DNA of 64,000 nucleotides, from the NCBI GenBank assembly GCA_000092065.1, contig CP000600.1. The stretch is one strand, 5' to 3'. Below the pieces are notes generated by a model. It was not told the DNA's origin. It searched no databases and was given only the letters and a program-made list of their open reading frames with translations. The position numbers and the translations under genes were made by a program. The DNA is from Ostreococcus lucimarinus (lineage: Eukaryota). Shown here piece after piece: positions 16,734-17,606 of this stretch. The first letter of the stretch is position 1. Each line of letters starts with the position of its first letter.

Positions 16734-17606
16734 TCACGTCGACGCGACGCTTCGCTTCACCGGCGGCAACTCGTCGTCGCACAGCACGTGTTCGATCGGC
16801 TGCAACATTTTACGCTCGCAACCTTTGCCGTCGATAGTGACGAGGCGAATGACGCCTCCCGACGACGCATCACGCGCGATCGCGAGCGAAATCGCGTTCG
16901 TCACCCACGCCTGGGCTTCCTCCTTGGACATGTCTTCTTTAAACGTATCGTCGCACCACCCGTACACGTACGCGCTTCCGCTTCCGCCCACGGTGAACGG
17001 GGCCTCGACCATGGACCCGCCCAGGGGAATGCCGTACACCTGCGGTCCTAATTTCCGATCCCAACCCGCTATGATCATCCCCGCCTGTAACCTATCTTTA
17101 TTTTCGTACGCGATGGTCTTGGTCAAGTTTGCGACGAGTTTGACGTCGCACGTCAGCACCTCATCTGCGCCCGCCGCCGCGCTCGACACCGACACCGCGT
17201 GCTCTTGCGCTAATCTCGACACATACGCCGCAACGTTTTGCGTATCAGCCGCGCTCCCGCTTCGACACATCCACACGTTGTCGCAGATCTGCGTGATTTT
17301 GTCGCTCGCCCTGTTCGCCACGTACGTCCCCGTGCTCGTCCGCGAATCCGCGCCGAGTATCACGCCGTCCGCGTATCGCACCGCCATGATCGTCGTCTGC
17401 GCCATCATCATCGTCGGCATCGCGCGCACGTCAGTCTCTCCGCGCCCGCATCACTCAACACCGGCGCGAGTCGTCGGCGCATCTCGATGCGTTCGTTCGT
17501 TCGTTCGTTCGTTCGTTCCTTCGTTCCTTCGTCGCGTCGCGTCGCGTCGCGTCGCGTCGCGACGACGCACCCCCATGGACACCGGAACATCGAACCCGTG
17601 ATCCAT
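16734..17606 (-). CDS. PSMB6: Proteasome subunit beta type-6 (beta1, caspase-like); complement(join(16734..17396,17571..17606)), 174-nt intron at 17397..17570
   Basis: TTIMAVRYADGVILGADSRTSTG...CRSGSAADTQ...IIAGWD...GGSGS is a near-perfect match to PSMB6/Pre3.

The tracked ORF starts at GTG and would put Gln at position -1 relative to Thr1. On the minus strand a spliced structure is more plausible: ATGGATCACGGGTTCGATGTTCCGGTGTCCATGGGG | GTGCGT...ACTGACG...CAG | ACGACGATC. This gives the propeptide MDHGFDVPVSMG ending in the conserved Gly-1.

The intron contains (GTTC)n and (GTCGC)n microsatellites. Confidence 0.85.
17490..17561. repeat. Microsatellites (CGTT)n followed by (CGTCG)5, inside the proposed PSMB6 intron
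   Basis: Seen directly: cgttcgttcgttcgttcgttcgttccttcgttccttcgtcgcgtcgcgtcgcgtcgcgtcgcg. Confidence 0.8.

Follow-up and report, generated by a model that had tools for sequence, protein, structure and literature searches.

A two-exon gene for a catalytically active proteasome beta1 subunit in Ostreococcus lucimarinus with an intron between Gly(-1) and Thr1

Introduction

Beta1 subunits of the proteasome, including plant PBA1, yeast Pre3 and human PSMB6, belong to the PF00227 fold family and have a short propeptide that ends in a hydrophobic residue and Gly and is followed by Thr-Thr-Ile. Maturation is autolytic: Thr1 attacks the carbonyl of Gly(-1), and the positioning of Gly(-1) is decisive for this step (Huber et al. 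2016, PMC4792962). The introns of the green alga O. lucimarinus have also been described. Among EST-confirmed introns outside chromosome 2, ACTGAC is present in 87% and GACTGACG in 66.5%, 5' splice sites follow an atypical consensus, GTGCGTG, and the reported genome-average intron length is 168 nt (Irimia & Roy 2008, PLoS Genet, PMC2483917). An EST paper reports an excess of introns among highly expressed O. lucimarinus genes, and a look through it for details on the proteasome or on splice motifs gave nothing specific (PMC2367439).

Here we describe the beta1 gene of O. lucimarinus within a 64,000-nt stretch of genomic DNA (the window). The Ostreococcus subunit has the fold family, the catalytic residues, the S1-pocket Arg45 and the short propeptide in common with PBA1, Pre3 and PSMB6, and it differs from them by an insertion of about 10 residues (the SSAAAGADEVLTC region). 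The gene model itself is already known: it has been public since the 2007 genome, and its intron is typical of the class described in 2008.

Results

Structure of the beta1 gene

We read positions 16584-17670 of the window (minus strand) as a two-exon gene for a catalytically active proteasome beta1 subunit, from which a 174-nt intron is removed and Gly(-1) is joined to Thr1; the probability of this reading is estimated at about 0.97. The features of the locus are as follows.

Exon 1: 17571-17670, minus strand, 100 nt, consisting of a 64-nt 5'UTR (17670-17607) and coding sequence (17606-17571)
Coding part of exon 1: 17571-17606, minus strand, 36 nt, the complete 12-residue propeptide MDHGFDVPVSMG, whose last residue is Gly(-1)
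Intron: 17397-17570, minus strand, spliceosomal GT-AG intron of 174 nt, phase 0, between Gly(-1) and Thr1
5' splice site: 17564-17570, minus strand, GTGCGTC, identical to the species consensus GTGCGTG at 6 of 7 positions
Microsatellite: 17530-17561, no strand assigned, (CGTCG)6.4, or (GACGC)n on the gene strand, found by TRF with 100% matches
Microsatellite: 17490-17532, no strand assigned, (CGTT)10.8, or (GAAC)n on the gene strand, with two GAAGGAAC variants, found by TRF
Branch-point motif: 17429-17436, minus strand, GACTGACG; the branch A (17431) is 34 nt away from the last base of the intron
3' splice site: 17397-17399, minus strand, CAG, the codon that is read as Gln(-1) if unspliced
Exon 2: 16584-17396, minus strand, with Thr1 at 17396, the stop codon at 16736-16734 and the poly(A) site at about 16584

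The start codon ATG occupies 17606-17604 on the minus strand, with A at -3 and G at +4. The codons of exon 1 are ATG GAT CAC GGG TTC GAT GTT CCG GTG TCC ATG GGG, and the last base lies at 17571. Exon 2 opens at 17396 with ACG ACG ATC ATG GCG GTG (TTIMAV), and the 3'UTR is about 150 nt long. From the 5' end at 17670, as defined by template switching (see below), to 17606 there is no upstream ATG, which rules out an additional upstream ATG or a further 5' exon.

An earlier interpretation of this DNA, made from the letters alone (the sequence-only reading), had pointed to a 36-nt coding stretch followed by GTGCGT on the minus strand, and these elements are indeed located at 17606-17571 and 17570-17565. 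Its term "mini-exon" holds for the 36 nt of propeptide coding sequence but not for exon 1, which has a normal length of 100 nt (17670-17571) and is not a micro-exon. The coordinates also bear out the branch motif that it placed 34 nt before a CAG abutting ACG ACG ATC, as well as the 174-nt length of an intron containing (CGTT)n and (CGTCG)n, both of which were recovered by TRF.

Transcript evidence for removal of the intron

By exact-sequence look-up, the spliced 232-aa protein was found as one uninterrupted ORF on four Logan contigs, which come from the sequencing runs SRR7814522, SRR28369152, SRR28369219 and SRR28369232. The alignment of each contig to the window consists of two blocks, the first from 17670 or 17657 to 17571 with 100% identity and the second from 17397 downward with 99.9% identity. 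The two blocks overlap by one ambiguous G, and exactly 174 nt are missing; the GT-AG rule settles the one-base ambiguity and places the intron at 17570-17397. In all four cDNA-type contigs the exon junction reads GGG/ACG, showing precise removal of the intron from mRNA. The RNA junction 17571/17396, which the sequence-only reading had named as the place to look, is thus present in four runs.

The ends of these contigs are informative as well. Two of them (L002 and L003) start with GGTATCAACGCAGAGTACGGG(G) fused to genome position 17670, and we take GGTATCAACGCAGAGTACGGG(G) to be the 3' part of the SMART template-switching oligo. A further contig (L004) has the same GGGG/AGTTCG junction at its 5' end and carries non-templated CAAAAAAAAA after 16584 at its 3' end. 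From the template-switch oligo, the poly(A) and the agreement of contig ends with gene ends, we infer that the four intron-less O. lucimarinus contigs are derived from mRNA. With the oligo at 17670 and poly(A) at about 16584, the mRNA extends over 17670-17571 joined to 17396-~16584.

The beta1 3'UTR overlaps in antisense the last ~80 nt (window 16584-16663) of a convergent ankyrin-repeat gene (16016-16663, plus strand), and it is because of this antisense 3' overlap that contigs L001-L003 run from beta1 into the ankyrin gene.

For O. tauri, one Logan contig (L030, ERR13034262) encodes the spliced 228-aa protein, with exactly the 111-nt intron missing. It also spans neighbouring genes, and its cDNA nature is less certain than that of the O. 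lucimarinus contigs. This contig raises the question of whether intron-less contigs could be genomic DNA of strains that have precisely lost the intron, that is, a presence/absence polymorphism rather than mRNA, since L030 extends from the divergent gene upstream through the promoter region into the gene downstream, farther than a single mRNA usually would. However, neighbouring transcripts overlap in compact genomes and are merged by assemblers, as seen in L001-L003, two of the O. lucimarinus contigs begin with the template-switch oligo at the same base 17670, one ends in poly(A), and all 8 genomic metagenome contigs examined keep the intron. We therefore regard genomic intron loss as extremely improbable and retain splicing of the mRNA as the explanation.

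Identity and propeptide of the encoded protein

The protein matches the proteasome subunit domain PF00227 over 189/189 profile positions (Pfam, E = 6.7e-44). The best PDB matches are all beta1/PSMB6/Pre3 chains (spinach 7qve_o, yeast and mammalian) with E = 1e-71 to 1e-55, and beta2/PSMB7 follows at ~1e-23. Across 94 aligned beta1 homologues, no substitution is seen at G12 and T13 of the spliced precursor, nor at D29, K45, R57, G59, S151, D188 and S191, which correspond to Asp17, Lys33, Arg45, Gly47, Ser129, Asp166 and Ser169 of the mature chain (the precursor-to-mature offset is +12, and +22 beyond the 10-residue insertion). The catalytic residues Asp17, Lys33, Gly47, Ser129, Asp166 and Ser169 are accordingly all present. 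The invariance of R57 (Arg45, in the S1 pocket) and the beta1 identity of the closest relatives assign the protein to beta1 rather than beta2 or beta5.

Precursor residue 13 is the position at which the mature PDB chains 1fnt_H and 1iru_H begin in the alignment. The propeptide MDHGFDVPVSMG is homologous to MVDYTTVPVSMG of O. tauri, MMEETDYTIPVSTG of Bathycoccus, DLGLNAPHSMG of spinach (7qve) and ...LSQPVSMG of Micractinium, and its DHGFDVPVSMG portion aligns over the whole length with the spinach propeptide DLGLNAPHSMG. Judging from these alignments, the O. lucimarinus subunit has every residue of an active beta1 and would need the spliced N-terminus. Thr1 follows Gly(-1) in the spliced product only (G12/T13). 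That splicing restores Gly(-1), as had been proposed from the letters, agrees with the public protein XP_001422631.1, to which the spliced product is equal, and with the invariance of G12/T13 in the 94 homologues. On the basis of this conservation and of the described mechanism (PMC4792962), the propeptide in Ostreococcus is expected to be removed autocatalytically at Gly12/Thr13.

If the intron is left in place, the ORF 16734-17429 reads VRAMPTMMMAQ/TTIMAV..., with Gln at -1, exactly as the sequence-only reading had noted (...MPTMMMAQ/TTIMAV). The gene might then be this ORF, or begin at the ATG at 17420 (MPTMMMAQ-TTIMAV...), lack an intron altogether and encode an 8-11-residue propeptide ending in Gln(-1). 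Such an ORF does exist, prokaryote-style gene callers predict a form of this kind, and it has been called on at least 43 metagenome contigs (P0001, P0122), but these calls come from intron-blind gene finders. The spliced cDNA contigs refute the intron-less gene. Moreover, Gln at -1 occurs in none of the 94 beta1 homologues, all of which have Gly, and, unlike the upstream ...PVSMG exon, MPTMMMAQ lacks conservation in all other Ostreococcus lineages. We consider this alternative next to impossible.

Under the two-exon reading, transcription starts at about 17670 and gives an exon 1 with a 64-nt leader and the entire 12-residue propeptide MDHGFDVPVSMG. The U2-type GT-AG intron of 174 nt (GTGCGTC, GACTGACG) is then spliced out, so that the Gly(-1) codon abuts Thr1 of exon 2. 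After assembly of the 20S core, the 232-aa precursor would be cut by its own Thr1, as established proteasome biochemistry leads one to expect.

Splice signals and intron content

The intron belongs to the U2-type non-chromosome-2 class, with GT...AG ends and a GTGCGTG-like donor (GTGCGTC...CAG), and it has a (G)ACTGAC(G) branch motif near its 3' end (GACTGACG at 17436-17429). Compared with the introns of this class (PMC2483917), it is alike in the GTGCGTG-type donor, in GACTGACG, in the constrained 3' architecture and in length (174 vs 168 nt). It differs in the seventh donor base, which is C instead of the consensus G, and is otherwise typical.

Both strands of the GC-rich part of the window (14001-64000) together contain 4 occurrences of the composite pattern GTGCGT...GACTGACG...N10-45-YAG, one of which is the beta1 site. 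A first-order Markov simulation expects 0.24 such patterns, which corresponds to a ~17-fold enrichment, and the beta1 splice signals thus exceed chance. The full intron signature GTGCGT...GACTGACG...YAG is also present on the plus strand at 34910-35220, 35324-35604 and 63517-63614, and these three intervals are probably real introns of other genes.

We also considered whether the intron hosts an RNA gene such as a snoRNA. This was rejected, as an Rfam scan of 17300-17750 returned no match at E<=1 and shuffled sequences fold as well as the intron does (z = 0.07). Neither are the microsatellites a special feature of the beta1 intron: TRF reports 66 arrays with a score of at least 60 in the 64-kb window, nearly all in its GC-rich part, and tandem repeats are ordinary in the non-coding DNA of this genome. 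Both intronic arrays are ordinary, fast-evolving non-coding filler, and one of them varies in length in wild marine populations. The beta1 intron might plausibly have persisted because introns are reported to be in excess among highly expressed O. lucimarinus genes (PMC2367439).

Distribution of the intron position

An intron at this position is present in six lineages of Ostreococcus and two of Micromonas. All Ostreococcus lineages examined share a homologous exon that ends in ...PVS[M/T]G, with GT and an intron after it, and Gln(-1) is found in no orthologue, which is the outcome of the comparison that the sequence-only reading had suggested. The Ostreococcus lineages other than O. lucimarinus have the following structures.

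O. tauri: exon 1 MVDYTTVPVSMG; donor GTGCGTG; intron of 111 nt; 3' end GACTCAC ... CAG
Ostreococcus clade of P0135: exon 1 MEYTD[A/T]PVSMG; donor GTGCGTG; intron of 165 or 130 nt with (ATGG)n and (GAC)n; 3' end GGACTGACG
Ostreococcus clade of P0167: exon 1 MTEGFMSTPVSMG; donor GTGAGTG; intron of 154 nt; 3' end GACTGACG ... AAG
O. mediterraneus: exon 1 MDYTKIPVSTG; donor GTAGGAT; intron of 203 or 199 nt; 3' end GACTGACG ... TAG
P0127, sister lineage of O. lucimarinus: exon 1 MDHGIDVPVSMG; intron of ~180 nt with unrelated sequence, known from read-through translation only

Exon 2 of all these lineages begins with ACG/ACC/ACA codons for Thr-Thr-Ile, and the branch motif is conserved in five of the six Ostreococcus lineages. 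The Ostreococcus introns range from 111 to 203 nt and, apart from the splice signals, cannot be aligned with one another; all three classes modulo 3 are represented among their lengths, and most of these introns contain in-frame stops. In Micromonas, both position and phase are identical: M. pusilla CCMP1545 has ...GGISTG/GTGCGTC, an intron of 132 nt and CAG/ACGACGATC, and a metagenomic Micromonas has ...EEISTG/GTGCGTG, 136 nt and GAGACTGACC.

Bathycoccus prasinos has no intron here, and MMEETDYTIPVSTG-TTILAC is contiguous. The first intron of Zostera marina and Micractinium comes 23-24 codons later, after ...RTSTG. An ancient intron position common to green plants was rejected on the grounds of these Zostera and Micractinium introns and of the intron-less Bathycoccus gene. 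The position is therefore a Mamiellales character rather than an ancient or general beta1 feature, and on the simplest reading of the compared sequences the common ancestor of Ostreococcus and Micromonas already had it and Bathycoccus lost it. Its conservation across Mamiellales is modestly new, and it offers a clean presence/absence character (Ostreococcus and Micromonas yes, Bathycoccus no).

The coincidence of splice junction and propeptide cleavage site had been called striking. The junction does fall at Gly(-1)/Thr1, but its position is an inherited one in Mamiellales, and Bathycoccus, Zostera and Micractinium do without it. The coincidence reflects an inherited intron position common to Ostreococcus and Micromonas. 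It is neither general nor evidently functional, and there is no evidence of a mechanistic link between splice junction and cleavage site.

Several further observations were made on the beta1 genes of the related genera. Micromonas beta1 has a second intron between ...CRSGS and AADTQ... that is absent from Ostreococcus (M. pusilla CCMP1545 L017, ~1843-2131; P0014-P0016). In M. pusilla this second intron holds (GTCGAC/GAAGTC)n repeats, and metagenome gene calls translate through the Micromonas second intron. The NCBI model of Bathycoccus (P0012) removes a 50-nt "intron" (OZ116775.1, L016, 1762-1811) where the related metagenomic proteins P0009 and P0010 have coding sequence, and two alignment blocks of P0009 on B. 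prasinos OZ116775.1 are mutually out of frame. This 50-nt discrepancy may reflect an error in the model or in the assembly, or else a real indel.

Variation of the intron in natural populations

We compared eight O. lucimarinus-type metagenome contigs from JGI. They do not differ in exon 1 or in the splice signals, and three intron lengths occur among them (174, 170 and 162 nt). The difference (-4 or -12 nt) is confined to the copy number of (GAAC)n, which is (CGTT)n on the plus strand, while (CGTCG)n has the same copy number in all 8 environmental contigs. The three lengths indicate that the intron is not under frame constraint; the 4-nt indels are incompatible with coding, as expected for an intronic microsatellite. 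This length polymorphism in the wild is modestly new, and the intronic (GAAC)n is a length-polymorphic marker in wild populations.

The same data bear on a possible function of an intron at the autolysis site. Regulated retention could yield a Gln(-1) precursor that is unable to mature, thereby tuning the caspase-like (beta1) activity; the intron position is conserved in Ostreococcus and Micromonas, and in O. tauri (111 nt) and M. pusilla (132 nt) the intron keeps the frame and contains no stop, which would allow a retained form to be translated there. In O. lucimarinus, however, exon 1 read through into the intron meets one in-frame stop, and the common 170-nt alleles shift the frame. Other lineages have 1-6 in-frame stops and intron lengths not divisible by 3, Bathycoccus has no such intron, and neither a retained-intron cDNA nor a structured RNA or Rfam family in the intron has been seen. 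A functional intron of this kind is very unlikely. The same small probability is given to a splicing-dependent switch at Gly(-1)/Thr1, in which the retained-intron Gln(-1) precursor would be unable to self-activate and the length of the microsatellite might modulate splicing efficiency in natural populations.

Database models of beta1

The spliced 232-aa product is identical at all residues to XP_001422631.1 (= ABP00948.1, UniRef100_A4SAL3) of O. lucimarinus CCE9901, whose gene sits on a 549-kb chromosome. This record describes the same gene with the same exon-intron structure as proposed here and differs only in the lack of a functional name ("predicted protein"). This identity assigns the window to O. 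lucimarinus, and the sequence-only reading had arrived at the official gene model independently. Read-through database forms of 231, 228 and 225 aa are intron-blind calls on metagenome contigs, and such calls on marine metagenomes systematically truncate beta1 or extend it through the intron.

The O. tauri locus (L005, KZ155785.1, 1501-2298) resembles that of O. lucimarinus in its neighbourhood (RINGv gene, beta1, ankyrin), in the homologous exon 1 (MVDYTTVPVSMG), in the GTGCGTG donor and in the CAG acceptor abutting ACGACGATC. Both NCBI models of this locus are wrong at the 5' end. XP_003082794.2/CEG01938.1 (213 aa) begins at Met4 of the mature chain and lacks Thr1, and OUS45782.1 (265 aa) translates through the in-frame 111-nt intron and has Gln at -1. 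The correct spliced form is the 228-aa protein P0162, which is on a Logan contig. The wrong 5' ends of both public O. tauri models are a modestly new finding, and the present comparison allows both models of this essential gene to be corrected.

One Ostreococcus beta1 protein (P0135, MAT11049.1), on contigs of up to 578,852 nt, has been deposited as "MAG: hypothetical protein [Rhodopirellula sp.]"; in this case, it seems, eukaryotic algal sequence ended up in a planctomycete bin.

Other features of the window

At the start of the window, positions 1-164 consist of (AACCCTA)23.4, a plant-type telomere repeat, and a degenerate CTAACCCTAGTTT array is found nearby (468-507). The telomere repeat at this place identifies the window as a chromosome end, namely the left end of an O. 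lucimarinus chromosome. About 570 bp from the telomere, positions 738-14237 (minus strand) contain an uninterrupted ORF of 4499 aa for a dynein heavy chain, with a full set of DHC domains and a weaker match to the axonemal DYH2-5-8_CC domain. The dynein region has a GC content of ~50%, compared with 60-70% in the rest of the window, and the drop over the dynein gene is sharp. In a published discussion of dynein chains, Ostreococcus is called a "special case" (Wickstead & Gull 2007, PMC2239267).

Upstream of beta1, a divergent ORF at ~17850-18446 (plus strand) has a promoter region of ~200 bp in common with beta1 and gives no Pfam match; its 5' region contains (TCGACA)6.5 and (CGTCCT)5.3 arrays. 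In O. tauri a RINGv gene lies directly upstream of beta1, and no separate gene is called where O. lucimarinus has the divergent ORF. Farther along, positions 50852-51138 hold 2.9 copies of a 99-nt unit with 96% identity and GTATAC palindromes, inside a repeat-rich region at 50534-51225.
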